From Trichlorobacter lovleyi SZ (GTDB lineage: Bacteria > Desulfobacterota > Desulfuromonadia > Geobacterales > Pseudopelobacteraceae): a DNA stretch of 32,000 nucleotides. The notes beneath the pieces were generated by a model. That model saw only the letters and a program-made list of their open reading frames with translations, did no database searches and had not been told where the DNA came from. Made by a program: the position numbers and the translations under genes. Below are positions 14,012 to 32,000 of this stretch, one piece after another. The stretch is from the NCBI RefSeq assembly GCF_000020385.1, contig NC_010814.1, forward strand, positions 150,001 through 182,000. Direction: 5' to 3'. The first letter of the stretch is position 1; each line of letters begins with the position of its first letter.

Positions 14012-14230
14012 CTATGCCTGCTCGATCACAAAGCTCGAGCTGCCGGTAAGTGCAATGGTGTCACCGGGATAGAGCTTGCGTCCCCGGCGGGTCTCAACCG
14101 CTCCGTTAACCCGTATCTGGCCTTCCTGAATCACGATCTTGGCCTCACCACCGCTCATGACCAGGTTGGCAAGTTTCAGGAAACTGTCCAGCTTGATGTA
14201 GTCGGTATCGATTGAAATTTTTTCAGACAT
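14012..14230 (-). CDS. S4-domain RNA-binding protein (YbcJ-like)
   Basis: 72 aa, [59 protein letters not shown]…, resembles E. coli YbcJ. The longer ORF (to 14413) runs through comM in another frame and was rejected. Confidence 0.8.
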
Positions 14231-14709
14231 GGGAAACCTTTCTATCCAGGCTACGGTACTGAATCGCCTCGGCCAGATGCGGTTCATGGATCGCTTCGGA
14301 ACCGGCCAGGTCGGCAATGGTGCGGGCCACCTTGAGGATGCGGGAGTAGCTGCGGGCCGAGAAGCCCAACTTGTCTCCGGCCAGTTCCAGCATTCGGTGA
14401 CCGGCGGCATCAAGCTCGCAATGCCTCTTGATCAGGCGGGCGTTCATCTGGGCATTGCAGTGCACTTTGGTGCCTTTGAACCGTTCCTGCTGTACCTGGC
14501 GTGCCCGGATCACCCGGGAGGCAATGACGGTGGAGGACTCGGTTTCACGGCTGTCTGACAGGTCGCGGTAGGCCACGGCCGGCACCTCGACATGCAGGTC
14601 GATCCGGTCCAGAAGCGGACCGGAGATGCGGGAGCGGTACCGCTTGATGGCAATCGGCGTGCAGGTGCAGGCATGGGCCGGGTCCCCCAGATAACCGCAG
14701 GGGCAGGGG
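14223..14709 (-). pseudogene. comM: comM (yifB, Mg-chelatase-like ATPase) 3' fragment A, host-like GC, cut off upstream of the CPCG codons
   Basis: Encodes PCPCGYLGDPAHACTCTPIAIKRYRSRISGPLLDRIDLHVEVP…AIQYRSLDR, the C-terminal roughly 160 aa of a roughly 500-aa ComM/YifB. The residues upstream (…NSRERCTH) are translated from the island junction, not comM. Confidence 0.85.
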
Positions 14710-14780
14710 TGTGTGCACCTTTCTCTACTATTCTGACTCAAAACGGCACTCGTTCTCAATTCAAATTCCCCTCGAAAAAC
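14695..14780. repeat. Island junction repeat, copy 1 (att-like core plus left arm)
   Basis: CCGCAGGGGCAGGGGTGTGTGCACCTTTCTCTACTATTCTGACTCAAAACGGCACTCGTTCTCAATTCAAATTCCCCTCGAAAAAC recurs nearly identically at 19086 and with more changes at 29007. Confidence 0.8.
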
Positions 14781-15196
14781 AGCAACTTCCCGGTTATCCT
14801 GAATTTCCCATCACAGTCGGTGAACACATTCGCAAACGACGCATGGATCTTGGCCTCCTCCAGAGTGAAGTTGCCAAGATCATCGGCGTTACTGAGTCTT
14901 CAGTATGGAACTGGGAGCACGGCACTGAACCTGAACTGCAGTATAACCCCAAAATCATCGAATTTCTAGGGTACGTTCCGTTCGACTGCCCGGATGACAC
15001 AGTGGGGCGGCTTGCGTGGTACAAACGGGTAAATGGGATGAATCTGGAATATCTGGGTGAAGCAATGGGCCGAGATCCAGAACAACTGTCAGACTGGTTA
15101 AGTGGGCGGCATCGTCCGTTCCGGAAGAACCGGGGGAAGATCGAACTGTTTTTGGAAGAGCAGGGAATATTCCTTCCGACAAAGAAGATTTCGTGA
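14711..15196 (+). CDS. Tandem-HTH XRE-family protein, island left-end gene (XRE1, copy a)
   Basis: HTH IRKRRMDLGLLQSEVAKIIGVTESSVWNWEHG plus a second HTH-like unit MNLEYLGEAMGRDPEQLSDWLSGRH. Three paralogs occupy the same position in each island. Substitutions look synonymous or conservative from PGYP onward. The start is uncertain; GTG 14711 is the only conserved in-frame start. Confidence 0.7.
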   Translation: MCTFLYYSDSKRHSFSIQIPLEKQQLPGYPEFPITVGEHIRKRRMDLGLLQSEVAKIIGVTESSVWNWEHGTEPELQYNPKIIEFLGYVPFDCPDDTVGRLAWYKRVNGMNLEYLGEAMGRDPEQLSDWLSGRHRPFRKNRGKIELFLEEQGIFLPTKKIS

Positions 15197-16201
15197 ATTG
15201 TTTCCTCCGTAAAAGGAAGCAACAGTTCCGTGTTCACACTTGCAATTGATATTTTGAACCCTCCAATCGGTATCGATATCGACCCCTGTTATATTAAGAC
15301 GGGGTGTGCCTGACGACAAAACTGCAAATGCTGATCCGCCATCTCCTGACACTACCCCGCCAAAAATAAAATATTTTCATCTTGCTCATTGACAGGGGTT
15401 TATTCCTTGTTACATTAAACTTTTCTTCTACAGTTGCTGCCTAATTTTGGCTAAAACTGTTTTGTAACTAATTGATTTTACTTTGTCGTTCTTTTAAAAA
15501 ACCGGAAAAAGTCGAAAAGTGTGGTGTCCAAACAGTTCAGACAATGCCTGATGGTGTAGCAAAGGAAAATAACACGTAAAGCATTGGAAAATAAATTGTC
15601 CGTTTAAACGATTATGGCGAGGTGTACACACCAACGGTTCCCGCCCGCATCACTCGTTCGAGCAAAACATCCTTATGCCCTTGGCATCAGACCTCTTCAT
15701 CTTAGTGCATGTAATTACAATGCGGGATATTAAGGACAGTATCTCGACACGACAAGAAAATATCGACCACAGCCCGGTTACGGGACTGACGTAAAGAAAT
15801 TTCCCATCGATATCATGCAACCCCAGCCGTGATCGGCATTGCCCCTCAGTGGACGTGGCCGGCGGACCCTCAGTCTCAGGTCAGAAACATACTGTCTTGC
15901 GATGTTGAGCTGAGTCCAGATAACAGCTGACCCTAAGACACGGAGGATTTTTCAATAACGCCTGGGGTTGGAACTGGGTGGTCCTGCTACTGATTGGCGT
16001 AGTCGGGATTGCGATCACGCGCCTTGCGGTGCTGGCTCTGGGAGGCAGGGTCTGCAACAGTCTTTTGGATACAGACAGAATGTGAAAAAAGGCTTTAGGG
16101 CTTGAGGTAACCCGAAGCGGACAGCTCTGTGGGCAAGATTAATATTTGCCTCAGCGCTGGAAAAGAAGCTGTTATTGTTTTCGGTTCGTAAGCTGTCCCA
16201 A

Positions 16202-16468
16202 TTATCTCAATTGACTGTCCTTGCTGCCGCGCCGGTTGTAGAGACTGAAGGTTGTCTGTTGTTTTTCGGCCTCAGCCTGGCATCCAACACAGAGCCTCAC
16301 CCCGGAGATTGCCTTGCGACGCGCTTCCGGGATTGCAGTTTGGCACTCCTCGCAATGAGTCAAGCTATCACCGGTTGGCATCCGGCTACGAACCTGCCCT
16401 ATGGCATCTTCCACGCTAGCGTCAATTTGATCTTGAACCGCCCCATCTCGGGACCAACCAACGGCCAT
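16202..16468 (-). CDS. ybiI: DksA/TraR-family C4 zinc-finger protein (YbiI-like)
   Basis: 88 aa from MAVGWSRDGAVQDQIDASVEDAI… to …CEECQTAIPEARRKAISGVRLCVGCQ…YNRRGSKDSQLR. It closely parallels E. coli YbiI, including the NRRGSKDSQLR end. AGGAG RBS. Confidence 0.85.
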   Translation of the reverse strand: MAVGWSRDGAVQDQIDASVEDAIGQVRSRMPTGDSLTHCEECQTAIPEARRKAISGVRLCVGCQAEAEKQQTTFSLYNRRGSKDSQLR

Positions 16469-16588
16469 GATTCGCTCCTGTTCAACCAAGGTGTCAGACT
16501 CTGAAGTTTTTTTATCCAACTACTCCAGTGTTTTCATTTTCACCGGCAGGTCGAAAGTGTTCGATAATACCGTATCGATTTAATAGAG

Positions 16589-16629
16589 GGGGCGGGTCTG
16601 TTTCACGCATGAACGACCCGCCCCTTTTT
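16589..16629. terminator. GC-rich hairpin between adh and ybiI-like gene, with the T-tract on the + strand side
   Basis: 10-bp stem GGGGCGGGTC / GACCCGCCCC (16589-16598 / 16615-16624), then TTTTT on the + strand. The minus-strand reading lacks a U-tract. Confidence 0.55.
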
Positions 16630-16659
16630 CTTCAATGATCCGTGTAACTTTGCTGATTA

Positions 16660-17811
16660 TTAGAGATCGACTACCTCGCCGTTAAAGCAACGCTCGAATA
16701 TTATTTTCATCTCTTCCGCAGTCGGTTGGCGAGGGTTAGTGCCGGTACAGGGATCGTCCATGGCATTCTGAACCATGGTGTCCAGCTTTTCTTCCCAGAC
16801 CTTCGGGTCAATGCCATAGGACTTGAAGCTATCTTCAATCCCCACACTCTGGCGGAGACGCTCAATCTCCAGGGCAAAATCCTCGACAGTCTTTTTACCG
16901 AGAGCCTGGGCCAAAAGCTGGTATTTGTCTGTGTCAAGACTATTGAAGCGAATCACGTTTGGCATCAGGATGGCGTTGGCGCGACCATGGGGAACACCGA
17001 ACATGCCGCCAATCTGATGGGCAATCGAATGGACGATCCCGAGAATTGCATTGGAAAAGGCCATCCCACCCATGTTGGAGGCGTCGTGCATGGCCTGGCG
17101 AGCCTCAAGGTTGTTGCCGTCTGCATAAGCACGGGGGAGGTTTTCGAAAACCAACCGGACCGAATCCAAGGCAAGCGCATCGGTATATGGGCTGGCCAAT
17201 GCTGCGACGAAGGCCTCTACGTCATGAGACAGTGCGTCCATGCCGGTGTCGGCGGTAACGTTGGGAGGCATGCTCTTGGCCAATTCCCCGTCCACGATGG
17301 CGATGTCGGGGGTAAGCTCATAGGAGACAATCGGATATTTAATCCCTTTGCAAGTGTCAGTGATTATTGTAGCGCAGGTTGCTTCGGTGCCTGTCCCGCT
17401 GGTGGAAGGTATCGCGACAAAGCGTGCCTTATTGCGCAGTGGTTTTATTGTAAATGGCTTGATGATTTCCTCAAAAGTTGCTTCGGGATATTCGTAAAAA
17501 ACCCACATGGCTTTAGCTGCGTCAATGGCCGAACATCCCCCCAGACCAATTATGAGATCAGGGTTCTCACGATTAAAAAACTCCACCCCTCTCAATACTG
17601 TTTCTACTGAAGGATCCGCTTCAACACCTTCGAAAACAGCAGAATCGATACCAGCCTCCCTTAATAAGCTGACGGTCTTGTCCAGGAACCCGAATTTCTT
17701 CATTGAACCGCTACCTGTAACAATAACCGCTTTACGGCCTTCAACCGTTTTCAGGTTTTCCAAAGAGCCAAGCCCGTGATACGTTTTCCGTGGAATGATG
17801 AATGCTGACAT
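16660..17811 (-). CDS. Iron-containing (group III) alcohol dehydrogenase / aldehyde reductase
   Basis: 383 aa from MSAFIIPRKTYHGLGSLENL. GGGS-like motif (GLGGCSAIDAAK) and His-rich metal site (…HSIAHQIGGMFGVPHGRANA). AAGGAG RBS. The 17844 start was rejected. Confidence 0.9.
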   Translation of the reverse strand: MSAFIIPRKTYHGLGSLENLKTVEGRKAVIVTGSGSMKKFGFLDKTVSLLREAGIDSAVFEGVEADPSVETVLRGVEFFNRENPDLIIGLGGCSAIDAAKAMWVFYEYPEATFEEIIKPFTIKPLRNKARFVAIPSTSGTGTEATCATIITDTCKGIKYPIVSYELTPDIAIVDGELAKSMPPNVTADTGMDALSHDVEAFVAALASPYTDALALDSVRLVFENLPRAYADGNNLEARQAMHDASNMGGMAFSNAILGIVHSIAHQIGGMFGVPHGRANAILMPNVIRFNSLDTDKYQLLAQALGKKTVEDFALEIERLRQSVGIEDSFKSYGIDPKVWEEKLDTMVQNAMDDPCTGTNPRQPTAEEMKIIFERCFNGEVVDL

Positions 17812-18010
17812 AATGTTTCTCCTTCTCTCGTTTTTTTGAACCAATTTATAGTCCGATAATATGCAGGATCTATTAATTGATCAATACACGTTTCTCTTGA
17901 AGTCTTGCCTAATTCTATTATATAAAGTACGATACGATAATCAATATGCTAATTTATTGTTTCTTTATACGAAGTGTCGTAATACCGTGACTTACAAGGA
18001 GGGCTTGAAA

Positions 18011-18946
18011 ATGACGCGAGTTTCAGAATCGCAACGAGAAAACAGGTTGGTAGAATTAATTGACTTCCTGGCGACAGGAGAAGGACTCTCTCCCTCCATT
18101 CTCGAGGGGGTACAGTTCATGCGTTCAGACAAGTACACCCCGCCGATTCCGATTATCTATGAGCCTTGTATAGTGATCGTTGGTCAAGGCCGTAAGATTG
18201 GGTACCTGGGAGATCAAGTCTACACCTATGACCCATACAATTACTTGGTGCTTTCGGTGCCGCTACCGTTCGTGTGCGAGACGAAGGCCAGCCCAGAGGA
18301 ACCCTTGCTGGCAGTCTCCATCCGGGTTGATCCGGCTACGTTGGGCGAACTGTTGATGGAAATGGATGATGACACCTCAATGAGTGGAACAGTGCCGCGG
18401 GGGATCTATTCGACACCATTGACCGGTGAACTGATCGATGCCACGGTTAGGTTGCTGGAGTGCCTGCGATCACCCATAGATAGCCGTATCTTAGGGCCAC
18501 AGATCATGAGGGAAATCATCTACAGGGTTCTCTGCGGTGAGCAGGGGGGGGCCTTGCAAGCAGTAGCTGCGCGTCACAGCCGTTTAAGCCAGATTGCCAG
18601 GGTTTTGCGCCGAATTCACACGGCGTATCAGCAAGAGATGAACATCGAAGCCCTTGCTGGGGAGGCCAGCATGAGTGTGTCAACCTTCCACCACAACTTC
18701 AAGGCGGTAACCTCAGTGTCGCCGTTGCAATACCTGAAAAGCATCAGGCTGCACAAGGCGCGGATGCTGATGGTCCAGGATGGCCTCACCGCCAGCAGTG
18801 CCTCTGGGAAGGTCGGCTATGAGAGCGCATCCCAGTTCAGCCGAGAATTCAAGCGATTCTTCGGAAACAGTCCGGCGGATGAAGCCATAAAGCTGCGGGC
18901 ATTGGGACCGGCTTCACTGCACTCTGTCAGCAATACGGGTAACTAA
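18011..18946 (+). CDS. AraC-family regulator with AraC_N (YqhC-like) sensor domain
   Basis: 311 aa from MTRVSESQ (AAGGAGG RBS). The C-terminal double HTH (…STFHHNFKAVTSVSPLQYLKSIRLHKAR…ESASQFSREFKRFFG) is divergent from the adh gene, as in the yqhC-yqhD arrangement. Confidence 0.85.
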   Translation: MTRVSESQRENRLVELIDFLATGEGLSPSILEGVQFMRSDKYTPPIPIIYEPCIVIVGQGRKIGYLGDQVYTYDPYNYLVLSVPLPFVCETKASPEEPLLAVSIRVDPATLGELLMEMDDDTSMSGTVPRGIYSTPLTGELIDATVRLLECLRSPIDSRILGPQIMREIIYRVLCGEQGGALQAVAARHSRLSQIARVLRRIHTAYQQEMNIEALAGEASMSVSTFHHNFKAVTSVSPLQYLKSIRLHKARMLMVQDGLTASSASGKVGYESASQFSREFKRFFGNSPADEAIKLRALGPASLHSVSNTGN

Positions 18947-19029
18947 GCCAGCTAAGATACTTTTAAAAAAATGTCATGCATCTTGCGGAAAAAAACTCAG
19001 CCTGGTGGTTAACGGGGTAAAGTACCGCC

Positions 19030-19101
19030 AAAAGTTGTTTCATTTAGCCGTACAATCGGTTGCTGAAGTCGGATCAGAAAGGTAGCCGCAGGGACAGGGG
19101 T
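19030..19101 (-). pseudogene. comM: Decayed stub of a second comM 3' copy
   Basis: The minus strand reads PCPCGYLSDPTSATDCTAK*, matching the PCPCGYLGDP…C.C start of the comM fragments. It is then interrupted, and homology fades within about 70 bp. Confidence 0.45.
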
Positions 19102-19171
19102 GTGTGCACCTTTCTCTACTATTCTGACTCAAGACGGCACTTGTTCTCAATTCAAATTCCCCTCGAAAAAC
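19086..19171. repeat. Island junction repeat, copy 2
   Basis: CCGCAGGGACAGGGGTGTGTGCACCTTTCTCTACTATTCTGACTCAAGACGGCACTTGTTCTCAATTCAAATTCCCCTCGAAAAAC differs from copy 1 at only a few positions. Confidence 0.8.
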
Positions 19172-19584
19172 AACCTGTTCCCGGTTATCCCGAATTCCCA
19201 ATCACAGTTGGTGAACACATCCGCAAGAAACGGATGGATCTCGGTCTCCTCCAGAGAGAAGTAGCAGAGATCATCGGCGTCACCGAATCCTCTATCTGGA
19301 ACTGGGAGCATGGCACCGAACCAGAACTGCAATATAATCCAAGAATTATCAAATTTCTAGGTTATATTCCGTTCGACTGCCCGGATGACACTGTGGGGCG
19401 GCTTGCGTGGTATAAGAGAGCTATGGGAATGAACCTGGATCATCTGGGTGAAGCTATGGGCCGTGATCCTGAACAATTATCTGACTGGCTGAGTGGAAGA
19501 CATAATCCATTTCTGAAGAACCGGGAGAAGATAGAGCAGTATCTGAAAAATCAAGAAACCTTCCTTCTGCCAGAGAAGAAATAG
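19102..19584 (+). CDS. Tandem-HTH XRE-family protein, island left-end gene (XRE1, copy b)
   Basis: Paralog of 14711..15196 along its whole length. The conserved GTG is at 19102. The TTG at 19060 lies in non-homologous comM-derived DNA and was rejected. Confidence 0.7.
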   Translation: MCTFLYYSDSRRHLFSIQIPLEKQPVPGYPEFPITVGEHIRKKRMDLGLLQREVAEIIGVTESSIWNWEHGTEPELQYNPRIIKFLGYIPFDCPDDTVGRLAWYKRAMGMNLDHLGEAMGRDPEQLSDWLSGRHNPFLKNREKIEQYLKNQETFLLPEKK

Positions 19585-19645
19585 TTGATTGTTTCTTCCG
19601 CAAAGGGAAGCTTTTCATAATTGGAACTTCCGGTACAACCCTTCA

Positions 19646-19984
19646 TCAAAAATCATCATTGACCTTTACCAGTCCACGAATCCGTTTGGGTAGCAGGGCC
19701 AGCTTATCATCGATGTGCCTGCCGAAGGTGTAACGAACTGAATTCTCCTCGTCGTTGAAAAGTTTCACTCCGACTATGTTGGCAACCTCAAACACCAGGC
19801 CGATTTCACATTTCGGATCGCCGCGCTCGATCTTCTGCAAGGTTCTTCTGGAAATCCCCGCCCGTCCGGACAGCTCTTCCTCGGTCATCTTGCGCTCTTT
19901 CCTTCCAAGCCGGATGAGCTTGCCCAGCAGTTCTGCTGCATCTCGGGTCTGACGGAGATATGTACGGTTCACAGGAGAGGCCAT
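19646..19984 (-). CDS. XRE-family HTH protein, HipB-like with C-terminal extension (XRE2, copy a)
   Basis: 112 aa. LIRLGRKERKMTEEELSGRAGISRRTLQKIERGDPKCEIGLVFEVANIVGVKLF. Convergent with XRE1. A near-identical copy lies at 26269..26607. Confidence 0.8.
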   Translation of the reverse strand: MASPVNRTYLRQTRDAAELLGKLIRLGRKERKMTEEELSGRAGISRRTLQKIERGDPKCEIGLVFEVANIVGVKLFNDEENSVRYTFGRHIDDKLALLPKRIRGLVKVNDDF

Positions 19985-20097
19985 AAACCACCGTTAGGCT
20001 ATTATCTTACTCATAATAATACTTATTGAGTACGATAGTAACCAAATGGTGGTAATTAAGTCAAATGCTATACATTCCACAGTTCGCTTTCGCTCTA

Positions 20098-20940
20098 TCA
20101 ACACAATTGAGGTTGCAGGACATTTTTCAGTTTTACTAACGCTCGCTCTTCAATCTGACGTACCCGCTCACGTGAAATGGAAAAGTGGTCCGCAATATCT
20201 TGAAGTGTTAGAGGATCATCATTGGTGATCCTGTGTTCAACAATATATTTCTCTTTTTCGTTCAACCCCTGCAGGGCATGGGCAATTGCTTTCTTCAGTG
20301 AATGCTCCTGCTGATACTCACCGAGCATTTCTTCCTGATTCATCCGGTCGTCAGCAATAGTCTCAAGTATCGTCAGGCCATCGCCCTCAATGATTTCCTC
20401 ATTGAGAGAAACTTCTCCTTTAAGCCGCTGCTCCATTTCTACGACTTCATGATCTGGTACGTGGAGCATACTGGAAACTTCAAATGCGTCGCTATCCCTG
20501 CCGGTTAACTTAAGTAGTGCTTCCTTGGTTTTGCGCAACCCATAAAACAATTTTCTTTGTGCTTGCGTAGTACCAATTTTTACCAGGCTCCAAGCGGAAA
20601 CAATGTAGTTTTGAATGTAAGCACGAATCCACCATACGGCATAAGAAATCAATCGAACCCCTCTATATGGATTGAATTTACGAACCGCCATCATGAGCCC
20701 AATATTGCCCTCCTGAATCAGATCGAGCATTTTCAGGCCGTAATGACGGTATTCGGAAGCGACTTTAACCACATAGCGAAGATTGGAAGTAATGAGGGTA
20801 TGAGCAGCCTCCAGATCCTTTTCCTCAAAGAACTTGACGGCGTAGTCCCTCTCTTCATCTTCTGTAAGTAAATTGAATTTGCGGATTTCGGAAAGATAGA
20901 GGGTAAGACTGTCGGAAATGATTGGCAGATTGGTAACCAT
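20098..20940 (-). CDS. rpoH: RpoH-family (sigma-32-like) heat-shock sigma factor carried on the island
   Basis: 280 aa from MVTNLPII (AGGAGG RBS). Region 2 reads LIQEGNIGLMMAVRKFNPYRGVRLISYAVWWIRAYI. RpoH-box-like QAQRKLFYGLRKTKE. Region 4 HTH reads LQDIADHFSISRERVRQIEERAL. Confidence 0.85.
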   Translation of the reverse strand: MVTNLPIISDSLTLYLSEIRKFNLLTEDEERDYAVKFFEEKDLEAAHTLITSNLRYVVKVASEYRHYGLKMLDLIQEGNIGLMMAVRKFNPYRGVRLISYAVWWIRAYIQNYIVSAWSLVKIGTTQAQRKLFYGLRKTKEALLKLTGRDSDAFEVSSMLHVPDHEVVEMEQRLKGEVSLNEEIIEGDGLTILETIADDRMNQEEMLGEYQQEHSLKKAIAHALQGLNEKEKYIVEHRITNDDPLTLQDIADHFSISRERVRQIEERALVKLKNVLQPQLC

Positions 20941-20969
20941 GACGCACCTCCTGAAAACTTGTATCATGA

Positions 20970-20996
20970 TTAGCACTCTATGGTGCTGACTGCTAA
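20970..20996. promoter_or_regulatory. CIRCE-like inverted repeat (HrcA operator type)
   Basis: TTAGCACTC-N9-GACTGCTAA versus the CIRCE consensus TTAGCACTC-N9-GAGTGCTAA (one mismatch). It lies between the predicted promoter and the start of the rpoH-like gene. Confidence 0.7.
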
Positions 20997-20997
20997 A

Positions 20998-21026
20998 AAT
21001 GTAGCAAATATTTTTAGCAGTTTCAA
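20998..21026 (-). promoter_or_regulatory. Candidate sigma70-type promoter of the rpoH-like gene
   Basis: The minus strand reads TTGAAA-N17-TACATT. The spacer is one arm plus the loop of a second perfect 11-bp inverted repeat, CTGCTAAAAAT-N9-ATTTTTAGCAG (20990-21020), that shares an arm with the CIRCE-like site. Confidence 0.5.
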
Positions 21027-21085
21027 GTAGAAAATCAATATAAGCTACATAATATCAGCGTGTTAACCTTACTAAAAAAACATCT

Positions 21086-25042: not shown

Positions 25043-25067
25043 GCACAATCAAGCCAGGAGAAGCGGA

Positions 25068-25676
25068 ATGCCCCAAAACATTGACGATCTTATACAACGG
25101 ATCAAGGAACTGCAGGAGGAACTTGAAGTCGAGTTCAAGAAGAAACGGGACGAATTCGAGTTCATCATCGAAAAGAAACGGGTTCGTTTTGCCGAGGAGG
25201 TGGCACGGCAGCAACGTCGGTTGAAAATCGGCTGGTTCCGCTATCTGATCAAATCAAGACCGCTCAATGTCCTGACCGCTCCGGTTATTTACGCGGGGTT
25301 CATCCCCTTTATGATCCTGGATCTGTTTCTCTGGCTCTATCAGTCGATCTGCTTTCCGGTGTATGGTATTCCCAAGGCAAAGCGCTCCGATTATCTGATT
25401 TTCGACCGGGAAGACCTCCCGTACCTGAACGTCATCGAGAAGTTCAACTGTTTCTACTGTTCCTATGGCAACGGACTCATGGCCTATGGCCGGGAGATTG
25501 CGGCCCGGACCGAGCAGTACTGGTGCCCGATCAAGCATGCCCGCCGGATCAAGGCGGCACACGAACATTATCCGCGCTTCTTCGAGTACGGCGATGCTGA
25601 GAGTTGGCAAAAAGGGCTGGAACGGCTGCGTCGGCAATATCCAAAAGAACAACAACCTGCAACCGAGGTGAAGTGA
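25068..25676 (+). CDS. Membrane protein of unknown function (coiled-coil N-terminus, hydrophobic hairpin, Cys-rich C-domain)
   Basis: 202 aa from MPQNIDDL (AGGAG RBS). Hydrophobic stretch LNVLTAPVIYAGFIPFMILDLFLWLYQSICFPVY, then CFYCSYGNG…WCPIKH. Tightly packed between the protease and the thioredoxin. Family not recognised. Confidence 0.6.
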   Translation: MPQNIDDLIQRIKELQEELEVEFKKKRDEFEFIIEKKRVRFAEEVARQQRRLKIGWFRYLIKSRPLNVLTAPVIYAGFIPFMILDLFLWLYQSICFPVYGIPKAKRSDYLIFDREDLPYLNVIEKFNCFYCSYGNGLMAYGREIAARTEQYWCPIKHARRIKAAHEHYPRFFEYGDAESWQKGLERLRRQYPKEQQPATEVK

Positions 25677-26199: not shown

Positions 26200-26235
26200 A
26201 ATCAGAATAACTTCCCTCTGCCAGAGAAAGAATAG
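26200..26235 (+). pseudogene. Stub of the 3' end of a fourth XRE1 gene
   Basis: AATCAGAATAACTTCCCTCTGCCAGAGAAAGAATAG parallels the XRE1-b end AATCAAGAAACCTTCCTTCTGCCAGAGAAGAAATAG (…FLLPEKK*). It sits at the same distance and orientation relative to an XRE2 copy. Confidence 0.5.
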
Positions 26236-26268
26236 CGAATATATTTTTTCGTGAAAGGAAAAATCACA

Positions 26269-26607
26269 TCAAAAATCATCATTGACCTTTACCGGTCTAC
26301 GTACCCGCTTGGGCAGCAGGGCCAGCTTATCGTCAATGTGCCTGCCGAAGGTGTAACGAATTGAATTCTCCTCATCGTTGAAAAGCTTTACTCCGACTAT
26401 ATTGGCAACCTCGAACACCAGGCCGATTTCACATTTCGGATCGCCGCGCTCGATCTTCTGCAAGGTCCTTCTGGAAATCCCCGCCCGTCCGGACAGCTCT
26501 TCCTCGGTTATCTTGCGTTCTTTTCTGCCAAGCCGGATGAGTTTACCCAACAGCTCAGCGGCATCCCGGGTCTGACGGAGATATGTGCGGTTAACTGGAG
26601 AGGCCAT
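26269..26607 (-). CDS. XRE-family HTH protein (XRE2, copy b), downstream of fic
   Basis: 112 aa from MASPVNRTYLRQ, differing from copy a at only a handful of residues. The 26646 start was rejected by comparison with copy a. Confidence 0.8.
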   Translation of the reverse strand: MASPVNRTYLRQTRDAAELLGKLIRLGRKERKITEEELSGRAGISRRTLQKIERGDPKCEIGLVFEVANIVGVKLFNDEENSIRYTFGRHIDDKLALLPKRVRRPVKVNDDF

Positions 26608-26709
26608 AAAAAACACCAAATGGATATTATCGCAATCGCTAAACAATTGTATGGATACGATAGTATCCGTTTAGGTAAAGATCTAATGAAACGCGGGAAG
26701 CATGAAAGC

Positions 26710-28236
26710 TTACTCAACGCGGCACGAACGGACGAAAGCGGCAAATGGTCGTATATCGCCACCGAATGAGGCAGCATCAAGCGCTTCCATGTATTCTTTA
26801 CGTCGGTCCACCGGAATGATAGTCCAACTGAAACCGCCCGAAGCGAGCATGGCGTTCATCAGGAAACGACCGATCCTGCCGTTGCCATCCATGTAGGGGT
26901 GAATGTAGACAAAGATGAAGTGACCCAGCACCCCCCTGACAGCAGAAGAGGACTCAGCTTCAAGCAGATCACATAACTCCGGCATCATCTCGCGCACAGC
27001 CTCCTTCGAAGGGGGCACATGGGCGGCGTTGCGGATATACACCTGTGCGTTGCGGTATCCCGCAAGATCGACAGCCGACAGGATGCCGGCATCCACACTG
27101 GGCGAAAACAGACTGCGGTGCCAGGCGGCATGGTCTGAACGGAATGCCGTGCCCGGGTTTGCACCTGAAAATATCCTGCGGATCGTGGCCATGACTTCAT
27201 TGTGGGCCAACCAATAACCGCGCGCAGCCATGGCATTGCGCGACTCGGAATCCTCCCGGGTATTTTCCGGGTTCCAGTCACCACGGGATACACGACTGAT
27301 CAGTTCATCGGATACCCGGTATCCTTCTATGGAGAGAGAGTGGTAGGCATCCAGTTGATACTGCTCTTCAATACGGGACATGAAGAGATCGATATTTTCA
27401 GGAATCCCCGGTTCCTGTGGAAACAGTTCAAGAACCGGCTGGCGCATCTCATGCCACATGAGTCGTATCCGCAGAGCATGGCGGGATTCGCTGTGCGTCA
27501 GCAGATTCATCGGCAGAAGTTCCTCAAAAGGATTGGATTCCGTAACCATGTATCCGCCAGAACGCATGGTTGCCAGAATCTGATCGGCATGTTCCGCCCG
27601 CCCGACAGCTCGCAACGCTCCGGCAAGTCTGCCGGCGATTGTGCTGTGTCCACCCTCCAGAAGTTCCCGGAGAAGAGTGGATACATCCCTGACCCCGGAC
27701 AGCACAATTTGCGCATCACGGGCATGGTTTCGGTAAAAGGAGGGCGGAGCCTTTATCAGGGCGGTTTCAGGCATGAGAACGCGGAGAGTGCCGACCATCG
27801 TCACTTTGTCGGCAGTCATGGATTCCACAGCTTTGTAGTCAAAAAGACTGCAACCGTTCGGCAGGGAGAGAGTTCCGTTCTTTGCCAGGGGGGAGTGGAC
27901 CGTGACCTGTTTCGGCAACAGTGTGCTACCGGCATGGAGGGACAGGGACAGGTCGGGTGACACATGCCAGTTATCACCGAACCGTTCCGTGCAGTACCCG
28001 GCAATAAACTCACGCATGGCAGCAAACCAGGGGGTGCTGTCACCCATCTGTTCATCAGGACGGGACGGCATATACCAACCCTTGAGGATCTGTCTCAGGA
28101 AGCCGTTTTTTACAAGCGATGACAACTGGATTCGCTTGAGTTCAGTTGACTTGATGACGGATTTCCCGTCATCCTGCAGTTTTTTCAGGACAGTCAGGGC
28201 ATCTGCCAGATGTTGCTGAGTCGGACTGGTCTTCAT
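26710..28236 (-). CDS. Fic-domain protein (508 aa) with intramolecular inhibitory-helix-like motif
   Basis: Fic motif HPYMDGNGRIGR (HxFx[D/E]GNGRxxR with F to Y). Upstream, SLSIEG fits the [S/T]xxxE[G/N] alpha-inh motif. The long N-terminal region is unassigned. Confidence 0.9.
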   Translation of the reverse strand: MKTSPTQQHLADALTVLKKLQDDGKSVIKSTELKRIQLSSLVKNGFLRQILKGWYMPSRPDEQMGDSTPWFAAMREFIAGYCTERFGDNWHVSPDLSLSLHAGSTLLPKQVTVHSPLAKNGTLSLPNGCSLFDYKAVESMTADKVTMVGTLRVLMPETALIKAPPSFYRNHARDAQIVLSGVRDVSTLLRELLEGGHSTIAGRLAGALRAVGRAEHADQILATMRSGGYMVTESNPFEELLPMNLLTHSESRHALRIRLMWHEMRQPVLELFPQEPGIPENIDLFMSRIEEQYQLDAYHSLSIEGYRVSDELISRVSRGDWNPENTREDSESRNAMAARGYWLAHNEVMATIRRIFSGANPGTAFRSDHAAWHRSLFSPSVDAGILSAVDLAGYRNAQVYIRNAAHVPPSKEAVREMMPELCDLLEAESSSAVRGVLGHFIFVYIHPYMDGNGRIGRFLMNAMLASGGFSWTIIPVDRRKEYMEALDAASFGGDIRPFAAFVRSCRVE

Positions 28237-28288
28237 GGTCGCCTTGCTGTTACACGATTATTATGATCAAGCATTACAAGATTATTGT

Positions 28289-28519
28289 TGAAGTGGCAAG
28301 GGGATTGCGGTCGTGGTGGATCGCGGGGACGTACCTTGAACTCGCTGTCTGCCAGTGTTCATTGGTTGGTCCCAAACAAATCTGCATAGATTTAGTTACG
28401 CAGTGAGCTGCTTTGAGCTCTTCAAATGCTACAGGACTGATGCGACCATTAGCACTGTGGCGGCGGTTACGATTGTAGTCAACTTCAATATACTCAAACA
28501 CTGATCTCGGTAATGTCAC
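28289..28519 (-). mobile_element. IS3-family insertion-sequence relic (3' end of orfB plus terminal inverted repeat)
   Basis: The minus strand encodes …FEYIEVDYNRNRRHSANGRISPVAFEE…, the conserved C-terminal end of IS3-family DDE transposases. The + strand TGAAGTGGCAAGGGG at 28289 looks like an IS3-type TG-initiated terminal repeat. Everything upstream of the transposase tail is missing. Confidence 0.7.
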
Positions 28520-28540: not shown

Positions 28541-29021
28541 TCACGATGTCTTCCTATCCAAACTCCGATACTGGATCGCCTCGGCCAGGTGCTGGTCGCG
28601 GATAGCTTCTGACCCGGCCAGATCGGCAATGGTGCGGGCAACCTTCAGAATACGGGAGTAGCTGCGGGCGGAGAATCCCAGTTTTTCTCCGGCCAGTTCC
28701 AGCATTCGGTGCCCGTTCTGGTCAAGTTCACAGTGTTTCTTGATCAGGCGGGCGTTCATCTGGGCGTTGCAGTGGACCTTGGTCCCTTTGAAGCGCTCCT
28801 GCTGCAGGTTTCTGGCCTGGGTTACCCGAGCCGCGATTGCGGCAGAGCTTTCAGTTTCACGGCTGTCAGACAGGTCACGGTAGGCGACGGCAGGAACTTC
28901 AACATGCAGGTCAATCCGATCCAGCAGTGGCCCTGAAATACGGGAACGATAACGTTTGATGGCGATGGGTGTGCAACTGCAAGTATGCGAAATATCTCCT
29001 AAAAATCCACAAGGACAGGGG
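28541..29021 (-). pseudogene. comM: comM 3' fragment B (divergent, lower-GC copy)
   Basis: PCPCGFLGDISHTCSCTPIAIKRYRSRISGPLLDRIDLHVEVP…AIQYRSLDRKTS*, colinear with fragment A. It has many nucleotide differences (roughly four in five positions identical by eye). Upstream residues come from junction copy 3. Confidence 0.85.
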
Positions 29022-29092
29022 TGTGTTAACCTTTCTCTACAATTCTTATGTAAGACGGCACTCGTTCTCAATCGAAATTCCCCTCGAAAAGC
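29007..29092. repeat. Island junction repeat, copy 3 (most divergent)
   Basis: CCACAAGGACAGGGGTGTGTTAACCTTTCTCTACAATTCTTATGTAAGACGGCACTCGTTCTCAATCGAAATTCCCCTCGAAAAGC. Confidence 0.8.
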
Positions 29093-29508
29093 TACCACTC
29101 CCCGGCTATCCCACCAATCCCGTGACCATCGGTGACCACATCCGCAAACGGCGAATGGATCTCGGTCTTCTCCAGAGAGAAGTCGCGGAAATCATCGGCG
29201 TTACTGAGTCTTCGGTCTGGAATTGGGAACACGGAGTGGAACCAGAACTGCAATATAATCCAAGAATTATCAAATTTCTAGGTTATATTCCGTTCGACTG
29301 TCCGGATGACACAGTGGGGCGGCTTGCGTGGTACAAGAGAGCGATGGGGATGAACCTGGATCATCTAGGTGAAGCGATGGGCCGTGATCCGGAACAACTG
29401 TCGGATTGGTTGAGTGGCCGGCATAATCCGTTTCGGAAGAACCGGGAGAAGATCGAGCTGTTTCTGGAAAACCAGAAGACCTTCCTTCTTCCAGAGAAAA
29501 GACGGTGA
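29023..29508 (+). CDS. Tandem-HTH XRE-family protein, island left-end gene (XRE1, copy c)
   Basis: Paralog of copies a and b (PGYPTNPVTIGDHIRKRRMDLGLLQREVAEIIGVTESSVWNWEHG…). Conserved GTG at 29023. The ATG at 28969 lies in comM-derived DNA and was rejected. Confidence 0.7.
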   Translation: MLTFLYNSYVRRHSFSIEIPLEKLPLPGYPTNPVTIGDHIRKRRMDLGLLQREVAEIIGVTESSVWNWEHGVEPELQYNPRIIKFLGYIPFDCPDDTVGRLAWYKRAMGMNLDHLGEAMGRDPEQLSDWLSGRHNPFRKNREKIELFLENQKTFLLPEKRR

Positions 29509-29565: not shown

Positions 29566-29880
29566 TCAGAATTCATTATTGACCATTATCACTCTGCGAA
29601 CCCGCTTGGGCAGCAGTGCCAGCTTATCCTCAACGTGCCTCCCGTAGTTGTAGCGGTTCGAATTCTCTTCATCGCGGAAAAGCTTCACCCCAACCAGGTT
29701 GGCGACCTCGACACCAGGCCGATCTCACATTTCTGGTCGCTGCGCTCGATCTTCTGCAAGGTCCTTCTAGAAATCGCACCCGAAACCACAACAATCATGG
29801 TCGATGGCAAAGAGAAGACGATTCCGCTGTAGCAAGTGCAAGTCGGTAACCTGCTTCTTGTCAAGCCCGACGAGCGCATA
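29566..29880 (-). pseudogene. Degenerate third copy of XRE2
   Basis: Nucleotide homology to 19646..19984 runs from the stop (TCAGAATTCATTATTGACC versus TCAAAAATCATCATTGACC) onward. A 1-nt deletion near 29710 and a non-homologous block at about 29770-29850 break the frame. Only a 64-aa piece (…RRTLQKIERSDQKCEIGLV…) stays open. Confidence 0.6.
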
Positions 29881-30040
29881 CCTTTATCGCGAATTCCCCA
29901 TCAAAGCGCCGATGGCTTATTACTTGTTTACACAGTGATCATGCAAAACATAGTAGAATTTATTGCCGTAGTATTTGCGCTTGCACTGAATGTTTTTAGT
30001 GTTAAGCTAAAGTGAGTGCACACTTGCAAGAGGGTCTTAA

Positions 30041-30643
30041 ATGACTAAAAGAAGGCGGGAAACTACTGAGGTCAGGCAGCAGCAGATAACCGAGGCAGCA
30101 ATGCAGGTTATTGGACAGAAGGGAATAAATGGTGCGACTACAGTTGAGATCGCCTCTGCGGCAGGCATCTCCGAAGGAAACCTTTATCGGCATTTCCGAA
30201 ACAAAGAAGAAATCATAAAGTCGGTAATTGACAAGATCGGGAACGACTTGGCGGCGATACTGGCTGGCGTGGCAGAAATAAGTGATCCACTACAAAAGCT
30301 GGAAATCACATTTAAACGCCACCTCATGTACATAGAAGGGAATGTTGGCGTTCCAAGAACAATTTTCTCAGAAGAAACAATTGTGGCGAATGAGAATCTT
30401 CGAGCAAGGGTGAAAGGCACTATTTTAATGTACTTCCAAGGTGTCAAGGAAATAGTTGAACAGGGGCAGAAGATTGGTGCGCTTGGCACTGAAATGGACT
30501 CGCAGGCGATCACCAGCATGTTCATCGGCACTATCCACTTTGCTGTCACGCGGTGGTTGATGAGTAATTTTGCACCGAAACTTACCGATGAGGCGGAGGG
30601 GCTTTGGAAGAACTTTGCAATAGCAGTAACTCACAAAGATTAA
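30041..30643 (+). CDS. TetR-family transcriptional regulator
   Basis: 200 aa. N-terminal HTH ITEAAMQVIGQKGINGATTVEIASAAGISEGNLYRHFRNKEEI. Confidence 0.85.
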   Translation: MTKRRRETTEVRQQQITEAAMQVIGQKGINGATTVEIASAAGISEGNLYRHFRNKEEIIKSVIDKIGNDLAAILAGVAEISDPLQKLEITFKRHLMYIEGNVGVPRTIFSEETIVANENLRARVKGTILMYFQGVKEIVEQGQKIGALGTEMDSQAITSMFIGTIHFAVTRWLMSNFAPKLTDEAEGLWKNFAIAVTHKD

Positions 30644-30676
30644 AATTATACCAACACACCATTACAGGAGGAAATT

Positions 30677-31315
30677 ATGAAGAAACGTATCAATAAGTTT
30701 GCTGGAACTTTGGCTGTTGCTGTTGCCTGCTTCGGTCTGCTGCTCACCCCACGGTTTGCCGCAGCCCATTGTGACACCATGGATGGTCCGGTTGTCCAAG
30801 ATGCCCGAAAGGCTCTTAATACCAAAGATGTCACACCGGTTCTCAAATGGATACAGGTCAAGGATGAGAAAACTGTGAAAGATGCCTTCAAAAAGGCACT
30901 CGCCGCTCAAGGGAAGAAACAACAGCAAGCTGCGGAGAAGAAGTTTTTCGAATCATTGGTAAGGGTCCACCGTGCTGGCGAAGGCGCACCCTTCACAGGC
31001 CTGAAGCCCGCAGGCGAAGTGGAGCCGGTTATCGCCGAGGCGGACAAAGCGTTGGCCGGAGGTTCTCCCGACGGCTTGGTAAAGATGGTGACCGATTCGG
31101 TCAGCCAAGGTATTCGCCAGAGATACGAGAAGGTGGCTGAAGCGCTCAAGCACAAGGATGAGAAAGTACAGAAAGGACGTGAATACGTGGAGGCCTACGT
31201 CGAATATACCCATTACGTGGAGCGCTTGCAGATGGATGCGGAGGGGCATGCGGCGCATCATGGGGAGTCTGCTCACAAAAAACATGCAGTTCAGAAGCTC
31301 GAGCATGGCCATTGA
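30677..31315 (+). CDS. Exported protein with mature N-terminus HCDTMDGPVV and His-rich tail (DUF6448-like, from memory)
   Basis: 212 aa. Signal peptide ending FAAA|HCDT. C-terminal AEGHAAHHGESAHKKHAVQKLEHGH. AGGAGG RBS. The family assignment is from recollection only. Confidence 0.6.
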   Translation: MKKRINKFAGTLAVAVACFGLLLTPRFAAAHCDTMDGPVVQDARKALNTKDVTPVLKWIQVKDEKTVKDAFKKALAAQGKKQQQAAEKKFFESLVRVHRAGEGAPFTGLKPAGEVEPVIAEADKALAGGSPDGLVKMVTDSVSQGIRQRYEKVAEALKHKDEKVQKGREYVEAYVEYTHYVERLQMDAEGHAAHHGESAHKKHAVQKLEHGH

Positions 31316-31385
31316 TCACGCACTGAATAATAGGTTGTGATTTTCGTTTTGGAAATAAAACTGTCACAAGCACATGGAGACGACA

Positions 31386-31580
31386 ATGGCAAAAAAAGCA
31401 TGGGTTGATCAGGCTGAATGCATTAGCTGCGGACTGTGTGTTGACAACCTACCCGATGTCTTCCGTTTTGATGATAGCGGCAAGGCGGAATGTTTTGATT
31501 CCTATGCTGCAACCGAGGATGAAATCCAAGCCAATGCCATCGATATATGCCCTGTATCGTGTATCCATTGGGAGGAGTGA
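31386..31580 (+). CDS. Small single-cluster ferredoxin
   Basis: AKKAWVDQAECISCGLCVDNLPDVF…ICPVSCIHWEE (a CxxCxxC…CP pattern). I prefer ATG 31386, which has a GGAG 6 nt upstream, over ATG 31374. Confidence 0.8.
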   Translation: MAKKAWVDQAECISCGLCVDNLPDVFRFDDSGKAECFDSYAATEDEIQANAIDICPVSCIHWEE

Positions 31581-31608
31581 ATTTTAAATCGTAGCCAAAG
31601 GAGATGTT

Positions 31609-32000
31609 ATGCAAGAAATAACAGGGAACAAAACCATCGGTGAGATTGTCGCAACAGATTTCAGGACTGCCACAGTATTTGAAAAACACGGCATCGATTT
31701 TTGCTGCGGTGGCAAGGTTGCTCTCGCGGCAACTTGCACAGAGAAAAGACTCGATCTTAACACGATAACAAGCGAACTTGAGGCGGTGCAGAATGAACCT
31801 GTTGAACGGGACCAGAATTATTCATCATGGTCGCTGCCGTTTCTTGCCGACTATATCGTCAATACGCACCATGTTTATCTCAAGGAGAATGATGAGCAGA
31901 TTGCCGCTTATGCCCGAAAGATTGCCGGTGTTCATGGGGCACACCACCCTGAGGTAATCCGGATCGCGACAATTTTCGAGAAGATCGCAACCGACATGGT
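31609..32000 (+). CDS. ric: Iron-sulfur cluster repair di-iron protein (RIC/YtfE/ScdA family), 5' part, runs off the window
   Basis: MQEITGNKTIGEIVATDFRTATVFEKHGIDFCCGGKVALAATC… is the ScdA_N/DUF542 signature, followed by the start of a hemerythrin-like domain (…ADYIVNTHH…). AAAGGAG RBS. Confidence 0.85.
   Translation, partial: MQEITGNKTIGEIVATDFRTATVFEKHGIDFCCGGKVALAATCTEKRLDLNTITSELEAVQNEPVERDQNYSSWSLPFLADYIVNTHHVYLKENDEQIAAYARKIAGVHGAHHPEVIRIATIFEKIATDM

Follow-up and report, generated by a model that had tools for sequence, protein, structure and literature searches.

Tandem units without a recombinase gene in comM of Trichlorobacter lovleyi SZ are probably derivatives of serine integrase elements with attP inside the integrase gene

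Introduction

A stretch of 32,000 nt from Trichlorobacter lovleyi SZ (assembly GCF_000020385.1, contig NC_010814.1, positions 150,001-182,000 of the forward strand; hereafter the window) raises the question of why pieces of the 3' end of one gene, comM, recur there three times, each beginning at the codons for PCPCG and each abutting the same junction and a gene with a helix-turn-helix (HTH) domain. An earlier note on this DNA had proposed that at least four related integrative islands stand in tandem and split comM, each island carrying a comM 3' end of its own, recombining within a short core, restoring comM and displacing the previous 3' end. The array itself is upheld by three junctions and a remnant at 26.2 kb, while its units and their integration are here read differently. 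The explanation favoured, at a probability of roughly three in four, is that at least four derivatives of large serine recombinase (LSR) elements, none of them autonomous, are stacked in tandem in the interval from 14.7 to 32 kb, and that elements of this family enter comM at the PCPCG codons and have their attP within the integrase gene.

Methods and scope

Relatives of the HTH_3 open reading frame (ORF) beside the junction, termed XRE1, were sought by a scan of one genome per species; 117 were found and 75 loci, from Geobacterales and Nitrospirota and often several to a contig, were kept. Neighbours of XRE1 were classified over 66 distinct copies in other genomes. XRE2 denotes a second HTH gene convergent with XRE1, and RE the conserved right end of about 70 bp seen in many units without an LSR gene. 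Labels such as L097 are loci or contigs of relatives and labels such as P0244 are database proteins; L093 is contig JAHCVJ010000001.1 of the isolate Geoanaerobacter pelophilus. Relationships among comM 3' ends were taken from a neighbour-joining tree that included the arms (the comM 3' copies found with units) together with native and intact comM genes.

A repeated junction tied to comM

Direct-repeat family D1 has three copies in the window, at 14695-14994, 19086-19385 and 29007-29306, with 82-86% identity, and the three junctions align over 700 columns at a mean column identity of 84%. Every D1 copy holds an intact XRE1 ORF (14711-15196, 19060-19584 and 28969-29508), and to the left of each junction, on the opposite strand, there is comM 3' sequence beginning at PCPCG, as had been described for positions 14695, 19086 and 29007. 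The features concerned are as follows.

14223-14709, minus strand: native host comM 3' end (copy A), about 161 codons from PCPCG to stop, the B' side of the left junction, overlapping the start of the downstream S4-domain gene
14704-14729, plus strand: junction 1, with crossover CA at 14704-14705, a GGGG spacer and P half-site TGTGTGCACCTTTCTCTACT at 14710-14729
14711-15196, plus strand: XRE1 copy 1, a linker, HTH_3 (E=4.5e-10) and a C-terminal extension, read as the detached 3' part of an LSR gene
19046-19100, minus strand: comM stub (PCPCGYLSDP...), Geobacter-type, not host-type
19095-19584, plus strand: junction 2 and XRE1 copy 2, with CA at 19095-19096 and P half-site at 19101-19120
28541-29021, minus strand: comM 3' copy B, an intact 159-codon ORF from PCPCG to stop, foreign, of a Trichlorobacter-type lineage
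29016-29508, plus strand: junction 3 and XRE1 copy 3, with CA at 29016-29017 and P half-site at 29022-29041

Among the 66 classified copies, a full comM 3' piece starting exactly at PCPCG lies about 95 bp from XRE1 in 43, the remainder having a partial comM piece (4), RE (12) or neither (7). Across the XRE1 loci, conservation is limited to XRE1 and the comM C-terminal piece; the cargo is diverse. The earlier note had allowed that the repeat might be a generic one, but the search of other genomes ties the junction and XRE1 to comM across about 75 loci, and the junction is neither a product of chance nor a generic repeat.

An empty site is available in a close relative, whose JGI contig L097 has an intact, uninterrupted comM; DNA homology of 93-95% between this contig and the window ends at window position 14710, exactly at the junction. 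The attB so defined is gccatgaaCCCCTGcccctgcgg (in comM sense gccatgaa-CCCCTG-cccctgcgg), and the left junction is aggtgcacacaCCCCTGcccctgcgg (aggtgcacaca-CCCCTG-cccctgcgg). The internal tandem junction reads ...acacaCCCCTGaatttgcaagg (..acaca-CCCCTG-aatttgcaagg, ending in RE), and the right junction, in G. pelophilus, gccatgaaCCCCTGgatttgcaagg (gccatgaa-CCCCTG-gatttgcaagg). In a second left-end subfamily, LE2, identity with attB stops directly after CA (GGGG[CA]TACATGCGG), which indicates a 2-bp crossover. The attP of L177, AGTAGGGAAAGGTTCACACAGCTC[CA]TGGGTGTGTGCACCTTTTCCTACT, has two 20-bp inverted arms with a 10-bp spacer, GCTC[CA]TGGG, and is situated inside a fused LSR gene; the window P half-sites at 14710, 19101 and 29022 match an arm of this site, that of junction 1 being its right half. 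Across L177 and an element from Nitrospirota, attP spans about 50 bp, with imperfect inverted arms of 20-24 bp around the CA crossover. Overall, attB, attL, attR and attP are related by a single-point exchange, with no long shared identity and no target duplication. Exchange within a core of about 15 bp, as originally supposed, is replaced by that of an LSR with a 2-bp CA crossover and inverted attP arms of about 24 bp. The joint between RE and its neighbour, whether the next left end or the comM 5' part, falls exactly at the CA crossover, so that RE behaves as a right half-site.

A weak sigma-70-like match (TTGAGA-18-CAGAAT; a consensus match only) is present on the minus strand of the conserved left end at 14730-14759, facing outward to the comM 3' piece and then the downstream host genes.

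An integrase gene divided by its own attachment site

The gene beside the junction had been described as an XRE gene. By alignment with P0244, a 658-aa fusion of an LSR with an HTH domain, it is instead the detached 3' part, about 150 codons, of the element's own integrase gene. The window XRE1 copies align overall with residues 489-645 of P0244 at 63-66% identity (E=1e-59 to 1e-64): copy 1 with residues 496-643 (66%, E=1e-61), copy 2 with 489-645 (66%, E=1e-64) and copy 3 with 492-645 (63%, E=9e-59). P0244 reads ..GKGSHSSMG/VCTFSYYPSKRYSFS..GDHIRKKRMDLGLLQRE..WNWEHGTEPE..FLGYIPFDCPDD, and the LSR body and XRE1 tail read the core in one frame (..RG/V..).

On the metagenome contig L094, a 472-aa protein with Resolvase and Recombinase domains abuts the comM 5' part at its end, ..AMNP; the element end there, TGTGTGAACCTTTCTCTACT, is an inverted copy of the P half-site and left-end terminus of the window. 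Eight of the 120 best homologues of the L094 LSR are longer, at 598-658 aa, and carry HTH_3 or HTH_31, and in sequence comparison the C-terminal ~150 aa of these fused LSRs are XRE1. The N-terminal domain of the LSR matches the catalytic domain of the TP901-1 integrase and the HTH matches the 434 repressor. An LSR is present in the relatives L094, L098, L177, L178 and L179, which have the same left end and XRE1.

These genes were found in both un-integrated and integrated contexts. The P0244 gene, at L177, stands between TrfA and an F-type transfer region (TraL/E/K/B/V/C), so that this autonomous relative carries conjugation genes, and is followed by an opposite-strand HTH_3 gene that is placed like XRE2 but only 27% identical to it; a second fused gene (P0325; L179-181) has a phage- or plasmid-like context. 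The integrated state is seen whole on the Nitrospirota contig JBFLZS010000009.1, in the order comM 3' part, XRE1 (3.9-4.8 kb), a prophage-like element of about 31 kb, a 500-aa LSR and comM 5' part; the LSR body directly abuts the 352-aa comM 5' part, and the 24-bp attP arms are inverted-identical at 17 of 24 positions around CA. The free form is therefore a fusion of 598-658 aa, and the integrated form a body of 472-500 aa that ends ..RGSW..A and a stop in comM antisense, together with a separate XRE1: because attP lies inside the ORF, the two states encode different products. A recombinase beside the comM 5' part, as the earlier note had expected, stands there in the autonomous relatives L094, L098 and L178 and is missing at the LSR-less array ends of L093 and L104.

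The detached XRE1 genes remain under purifying selection, with omega of 0.09-0.16. Their dS is 0.2-0.55 over the first 35 codons (att site and linker) and 0.8-1.5 over the HTH part, and the low value in the first 35 codons fits a cis-acting role there. Scans of viral contigs with two LSRs returned nothing useful.

These results bear on the reading in which the comM C-terminal fragment and the divergent XRE gene form a stand-alone duplicated pair, of a defence or toxin-antitoxin-like kind, with no att footprint. Both genes are indeed intact and conserved, and many ~176-aa "ATP-binding proteins" in databases consist of this comM fragment. Their first ~17 residues, however, come from translating the left end in antisense. 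The fragment begins in every case exactly at the crossover within PCPCG, comM is intact at the same place in a close relative, and XRE1 runs in frame into the LSR in un-integrated elements; together these points make such a pair very improbable.

Even less probable is an array of Tn7-like transposons of the AbaR/Tn6022 type, for which comM is the classical target. The left end does begin TGTGTG, with an inverted copy at the other end in L094, and such elements do occupy comM of Trichlorobacter relatives: L091 (123-4219) and L092 (4048-10705) carry a TnsA-like protein, a TnsB with Mu-transposase-C domain and a TniB-type TnsC. There they abut a comM 3' piece of 234-236 aa, whose break at ..SPKPGEVSLAH marks a second, independent insertion site in comM, situated about 62 codons upstream of that used by the LSR. 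Against an origin of this kind are that difference in position and in gene content, the lack of any TnsA, TnsB, TnsC or rve homologue in the window or any XRE1 locus, and the inverted 20-24-bp arms that flank a 2-bp crossover inside the LSR gene.

A third comM site occurs at L093 8334-10435, where a different LSR, of 532 aa, lies directly upstream of a comM piece starting at the Walker A motif (MLMLGPPGSGKT), with Rep_trans, small resolvase and RelA_SpoT genes as neighbours; comM of L093 is cut into at least three pieces. At L182-L185 (for example L184 2899-4798), an LSR of 493 aa without the HTH tail, 55% identical to the comM-targeting LSR, is found beside rpsI/rplM in several Geobacteraceae assemblies, so the clade has at least one other chromosomal target. 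A derivation of RE from the 3' end of another LSR subfamily (P0283) was tried and rejected, since that LSR is located at rpsI/rplM and has no similarity to RE. The XRE1-type domain family is large, with 1348 representatives at E<=1e-10 (including P0363, P0387 and P0465), and some of its proteins have many tandem matches (11 stretches in 792 aa, 22 in 4162 aa).

Units without an integrase, in the window and in relatives

The three XRE1 copies, together with an XRE1 tail and XRE2 at 26.2 kb, give at least four left ends. The remaining features of the window are listed below; domain assignments are from Pfam.

1-14222: host flank, with MreB-like, OEP, PabB-like, DUF559, RND pump, TetR, an HTH and FRG-domain pair, metallo-hydrolase, MscL and S4-domain genes
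15197-19045: unit 1 cargo, with a DksA/TraR zinc finger protein (16202-16519, minus), Fe alcohol dehydrogenase (ADH; 16660-17844, minus) and AraC (17861-18946, plus)
19646-19984, minus strand: XRE2 copy 1, a second HTH_3 gene convergent with XRE1
20098-25676: unit 2a cargo, a heat-shock module with RpoH-like sigma-70 (20098-20976, minus), three HSP20, DnaJ-like, MerR_2, HtrA/DegP protease and an unknown 226-aa protein
26200-26646: fourth left-end remnant, with the last ~12 codons of XRE1 (26200-26260, plus) and XRE2 copy 2 (26272-26607, minus); repeat families D5, D2 and D3
26710-28519, minus strand: unit 2b cargo, with a 508-aa Fic-domain protein (26710-28236; Fic) and an insertion sequence (IS) integrase core remnant (28274-28519; rve_2)
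29569-32000: unit 3, with decayed XRE2 (29569-29780, minus), TetR (30041-30643), DUF6448 (30677-31315), ferredoxin (31386-31580) and ScdA/hemerythrin from 31609, the last gene being cut by the window end so that the unit runs beyond it

Several of the structural statements of the earlier note are confirmed by this annotation. Before XRE2 copy 2, which is 95.5% identical in aa to the first by tblastn, only the end of XRE1 is present, in agreement with a fourth left end at about 26200. The window lacks the comM 5' part, and phmmer and tblastn found no recombinase in it. The array continues rightward, as contigs with proteins identical to those of unit 3 go on to ScdA, CopD, cytochrome c and NarG; look-ups of window proteins beyond the right edge gave only contigs of up to 6.4 kb that end at repeats. 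RE is absent from the window, and tRNA and Rfam scans of it found nothing. The assembly is supported over 18.7 kb (window 3539-22256) by 100% identity in an independent NCBI assembly, and short-read contigs stop exactly at the junction.

Unit 1 has no recognisable right end, either RE or P', and the comM stub begins about 100 nt after AraC. The ORFs of its ADH and AraC protein clusters recur in L041 upstream of a later RE-XRE1 junction, with no homology found between unit 1 cargo and L041 at the DNA level. The heat-shock module of unit 2a is 93% identical in L016; the homology starts at 19068, 33 nt inside the stub, and extends into the unit, and L016 has a full comM 3' piece where the window has the stub and a comparable XRE1 tail after the same module. 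The Fic gene of unit 2b is 89-90% identical in L026, L033 and L044.

Among the relatives, the common plan is a left end with XRE1 (usually with XRE2), cargo, and then RE or a comM 3' piece, so that the supposition that each element carries and leaves a comM copy fails for the many units that end in the 70-bp RE instead. Arrays of 2-4 or more units occur on many contigs. In G. pelophilus, 62 kb separate the comM 5' piece from the native comM 3' piece; the array ends in RE on the right, without a recombinase within 10 kb, and comM remains unrestored. An LSR body, TnsA/TnsB/TnsC or rve transposase was found by phmmer and tblastn in none of the window units or 75 XRE1 loci; of the LSR gene, the window holds only the 3' ~150 codons, in three copies. 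The units are accordingly regarded as non-autonomous derivatives of the LSR family. Identical types of unit, cut off precisely at their ends, are found again in different genomes (the XRE1-XRE2-Fic unit and the heat-shock unit, at 89-93% identity), which may be taken as indirect support for mobilisation of units.

This recurrence also counts against a reading of pure decay, in which the array is the wreckage of successive complete insertions of prophages or integrative and conjugative elements (ICEs), the units are immobile and the comM copies are by-products of rearrangement. Such decay would account for the missing LSR body in all units, for the lack of RE or P' after AraC in unit 1, for the deletion that fused two units at 26.2 kb and for the decayed XRE1 and XRE2 copies that exist. 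It would not be expected to yield the same short, precise-ended units in many genomes, a conserved RE joined exactly at CA to left ends and to the comM 5' part, or intact XRE1 genes and arms with omega of about 0.05-0.16; moreover, a second LSR integration requires an attB, which decay alone does not regenerate. Pure decay is consequently considered unlikely.

In the host flank, the segment at 10752-12717, about 2 kb long and of low GC (~0.49), contains a small HTH_3 gene (10879-11139) and a gene with an FRG domain (11301-12317). L097, though otherwise colinear, lacks this segment, which probably represents a small insertion of its own. A 57-nt direct repeat (family D8) occurs at 671-727 and 2424-2480, 88% identical and 1.75 kb apart, the second copy lying inside the OEP-type gene (2331-3632).

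Origin of the comM 3' copies

Copies A and B each code for the C-terminal ~160 aa of ComM (Mg_chelatase, positions 156-205 of 207, and Mg_chelatase_C, E ~1e-35). Their identity is 79% in DNA and 87% in protein, with a dN of 0.085 and a dS of 1.64, and the comM 3' copies are intact ORFs maintained by purifying selection. GC is 0.63 in copy A, 0.56 in copy B, 0.61 in the host flank and 0.50 in the array, bearing out the first description of copy A as host-like and copy B as divergent and lower in GC; the middle piece (~55 nt) is, as also described, a stub, in which PCPCGYLSDP is followed by divergence. Copy A is 98% identical in aa to the 3' part of the intact comM of L097 and is followed by S4 and MscL, as in L097, L031 and L034; these host genes follow the outermost comM copies only. 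The comM 3' end of the window has 93% aa identity to T. thiogenes, and proteins identical to those of the window occur in a KB-1-type metagenome, both of which point to a host from the Trichlorobacter/Geobacter lovleyi group.

The other copies are not of one lineage. In the tree, comM arms interleave with native and intact comM genes, which identifies them as captured host sequence rather than, as previously assumed, the element's own comM lineage. The nearest relative of copy B is the native comM (P0001/L092) of a Trichlorobacter-like organism, at 91% aa identity, and the internal comM copy of L068 groups with the native G. pelophilus gene. In L084 the displaced copy and the restored one are 98.5% identical over a direct repeat of 590 nt, which extends 112 nt past the stop. 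More generally, similarity among comM copies ends at the stop or up to ~500 nt past it, and for copy B it ends at the stop codon. Divergence of an arm tracks the unit on its right and not that on its left: the 93% homology with L016 begins inside the stub and extends into unit 2a, and between the window and L026, Fic is 90% identical and copy B with the next XRE1 78%. Replacement arms are absent from the autonomous relatives. A mosaic origin of copy B from Trichlorobacter-type and L026-type arms was considered and gave no clear signal, and no conserved motif (a possible second att site) was found just past the stop of comM copies.

Restoration of comM, foreseen in the earlier note as the general rule, is found at some loci only. 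In L104 and L084 the comM 5' part runs in frame into a foreign 3' copy, and comM is unrestored in G. pelophilus, the one whole array of which both ends were seen. The order in L104 is full comM, HipBA, decayed XRE1, the tail of another comM copy and more cargo; the C-terminal 159 residues of the restored gene are 97% identical in aa to the intact gene of L103, and comparison of the two loci across the crossover gives a uniform identity of ~82%, with no information on a foreign arm. Captured comM 3' ends thus appear able to restore the gene and with it a functional attB.

The reading set out in the earlier note, of autonomous-type islands with an unknown, probably tyrosine, recombinase, a comM arm of their own in attP, a core of ~15 bp and repeated site-specific hits that always restore comM, can be weighed at this point. 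It draws on the intact and constrained comM copies whose similarity ends at or soon past the stop, on the restored comM beside XRE1 units in L104 and L084, and on a topology of host 3' end, units and 5' end that fits. It nevertheless conflicts with the tree, with the host copy in L084 and its 112 nt of flank, with arm divergence that follows the right-hand unit (78% against 90% for Fic), with RE in place of a comM copy at 12 of 66 junctions, with the unrestored comM of G. pelophilus and with the absence of a recombinase from any unit. The family recombines by means of an LSR, whose gene is split, and partner sites can have as little as CA in common; this evidence makes a tyrosine recombinase family unnecessary, and the reading is judged quite unlikely.

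Several further comM variants were recorded. One clade has an altered start (L036 5158-5634, L057 10041-10514 and L045 14524-14997), in which a cysteine-rich PCKCSGNPANPDSCTCT(M/V)RELIQYRS replaces PCPCGYLSDPTHPCTCTP.AIHRYRS and the rest of the ORF is intact. The restored comM of L084 (17542-19406; Nitrospirota) is called as two ORFs of 292 and 320 aa and spans ~617 codons, in which residues ~187-296 match twice; it could reflect an internal duplication, a frameshift or the scar of another element. Partial comM 3' fragments (~residues 75-160) are found in L064 (8476-8724), L065 (8757-9017), L068 (5493-5687) and L069 (8469-8708), 650-900 nt past a full comM 3' copy, with a small conserved gene (M.QVTRFDD..) in between; in appearance they are nested remains of previous replacement rounds. 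An argument from the lack of full-length ComM among best homologues was dropped, because that search lists matches near the query's own length, and full-length comM genes are readily found in a DNA scan.

A model for integration and stacking

The data show how the att sites are related, that the integrase gene is split, that an empty site exists, that the units have no LSR and that the comM copies come from hosts; the manner in which arm-bearing units became stacked is inferred. Under the favoured LSR reading, the free element, be it a conjugative plasmid, an ICE or phage-like, has an LSR of ~650 aa whose C-terminal domain is built round one HTH detectable by Pfam, and attP is placed within the integrase gene, with ~150 codons between it and the 3' end. 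Exchange between attP and attB at CA would split comM and the integrase gene alike, leaving an LSR body of ~495 aa beside the comM 5' part and the P half-site with the last ~150 codons (XRE1) beside the comM 3' part. Since integration divides the integrase gene at attP, each junction and XRE1 copy of the window would be the footprint of one integration, here or in an earlier host. The window units would all have lost the LSR body and kept their cargo, and the stub at 19.05 kb and copy B at 28.5 kb would be comM 3' ends captured in earlier hosts.

Canonical LSR reactions explain single insertions and the tandem junctions of RE with a left end. For the stacking of units with comM arms, two routes may be envisaged. 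In route (a), an aberrant excision like that of lambda dgal would take the comM 3' end and a variable flank and drop the LSR end, and the circle would re-enter by homologous Campbell recombination in comM, duplicating the 3' end, restoring the gene and placing the newest unit beside the comM 5' part. This route would directly explain the loss of the LSR in every internal unit, the variable arm boundary, the partial arms and the linkage of an arm to the right-hand unit. In route (b), a unit bearing an arm would restore comM, and the regenerated attB would take a new element by means of an LSR supplied in trans; an autonomous neighbour could then leave along with the unit and transfer it to another host (accretion and cis-mobilisation). 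Stacking may have proceeded by either route or by a mixture of both.

Several observations weigh against the LSR reading. The window has no LSR gene or remnant and the right end of the array was not reached, so that LSR involvement in it is suggested by homology of the left ends and XRE1 to those of relatives. RE does not resemble the P' arm found in relatives with an LSR, and it was absent from every LSR-bearing locus that was checked for it. Reactions of attP with attB and of attL with attR do not alone create the internal junctions of cargo, comM 3' end and P half-site, for which reason the stacking step stands as a reconstruction. Lastly, a screen of the window and 75 loci for a tyrosine recombinase gave no match, with a hand-typed XerD query and no positive control.

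A wider interpretation is offered tentatively, as possible though rather doubtful. The placement of attP within the LSR gene could act as a state switch, in which the full LSR-HTH protein is made only when the element is excised, and a tail-less LSR with free XRE1 when it is integrated, controlling directionality or expression; the one line of support for such a consequence is that purifying selection still acts on detached XRE1 copies. XRE1 and the P half-site might then let cassettes be recognised, stacked and re-mobilised, and captured comM 3' ends might regenerate the gene and attB, so that in Geobacterales and Nitrospirota comM would gather modules for stress and respiration much as an integron does.

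The findings are relevant to annotation, in that recurrent pairs of an "ATP-binding protein (~176 aa)" and an XRE regulator in Geobacterales and Nitrospirota are LSR footprints in comM. They also define a natural attB/attP pair and a clade of LSRs in which the C-terminal domain, with its HTH, is unusual, both of possible interest to users of serine integrases as tools, and a split integrase gene offers a simple means of encoding different proteins in the free and integrated states. The arrays bear adaptive modules (a heat-shock regulon, KatG/Fur, efflux pumps and nitrate respiration), and with such cargo and lengths of up to 62 kb they probably shape niche adaptation of Geobacter-like bacteria. 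As comM encodes a helicase that promotes natural transformation, its breakage or restoration by arrays bears on the conflict between mobile elements and host competence.

Comparison with known systems

Integration of LSR elements in genes, tandem accretion with non-autonomous members and gene-restoring duplications are already established concepts. Prophages and ICEs with LSRs integrate within host genes, as SPbeta does in spsM, skin in sigK and A118 in comK, and as do elements with integrases of the TP901-1/phiC31 type. The present family resembles them in the Resolvase, Recombinase and zinc-ribbon domains of its integrase, in an attP of ~50 bp with imperfect inverted arms, a 2-bp crossover and no long identity with attB, and in having the integrase gene at one end of the integrated element with the host gene split. 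It differs from them in that attP lies within the integrase ORF, a C-terminus of ~150 aa containing the HTH is left as a separate gene at the other end, and most copies here are LSR-less units in stacked arrays. The position of attP inside the LSR ORF, with detachment of a whole HTH-containing domain on integration, appears to be unusual, as does the commonness and long stacking of integrase-less cassettes that all keep the XRE1 fragment; no description of attP inside a serine integrase ORF was found in the literature searched, which is a weak negative.

Accretion at a single site is known from ICESt1/ICESt3 and cis-mobilisable elements (CIMEs) at fda in Streptococcus thermophilus, and such arrays can grow and be mobilised by an autonomous relative. 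Tandem ssrA islands with a serine recombinase are reported for Dehalococcoides (PMC3146451). The comM arrays are likewise tandem at a single att site, with members that lack recombination and transfer genes and keep att sites. They are distinguished by a target inside comM, by the integrase 3' fragment that every unit keeps, and by the separation of units through an RE/left-end junction or 480-bp copies of the target gene 3' end.

In Acinetobacter, comM is a hotspot that is interrupted by Tn7-like AbaR/Tn6022 islands and other mobile elements (PMC11472951). The same target gene and the same Mg chelatase/AAA+ domain are interrupted here, and cargo islands accumulate in both cases. The AbaR/Tn6022 islands, unlike the present units, use a DDE transposase with TnsABC and a different comM site (~62 codons upstream in the Trichlorobacter relatives).

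Phage 21 and e14 at icd bring a replacement 3' end of their target gene. As there, a diverged duplicate 3' end can keep the gene intact and the displaced host end lies beside the element (L104, L084). The replacement end of phage 21/e14, however, belongs to the attP of a tyrosine integrase, whereas the comM copies are host-derived, extend from 0 to ~500 nt past the stop and are absent from the autonomous relatives. The transducing phages lambda dgal/dbio arise by aberrant excision and re-enter by homology-driven (Campbell) integration. This analogy would explain the one-sided host DNA (comM 3' end plus 0-500 nt), the lost P' and LSR body, and the comM 3' direct repeats.

A parallel for a coding sequence divided by attP comes from mycobacteriophages, in which Broussard et al. 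in 2013 reportedly described integration-dependent immunity with attP inside the repressor gene. In both systems attP is located in a coding sequence, integration alters the C-terminus of a phage or element protein, and the free and integrated products differ. In the mycobacteriophages the integrase is of the tyrosine type and the split gene is that of the repressor, which loses a degradation tag; in the comM elements it is the serine integrase itself that is split, with a whole DNA-binding domain detached and still under selection.

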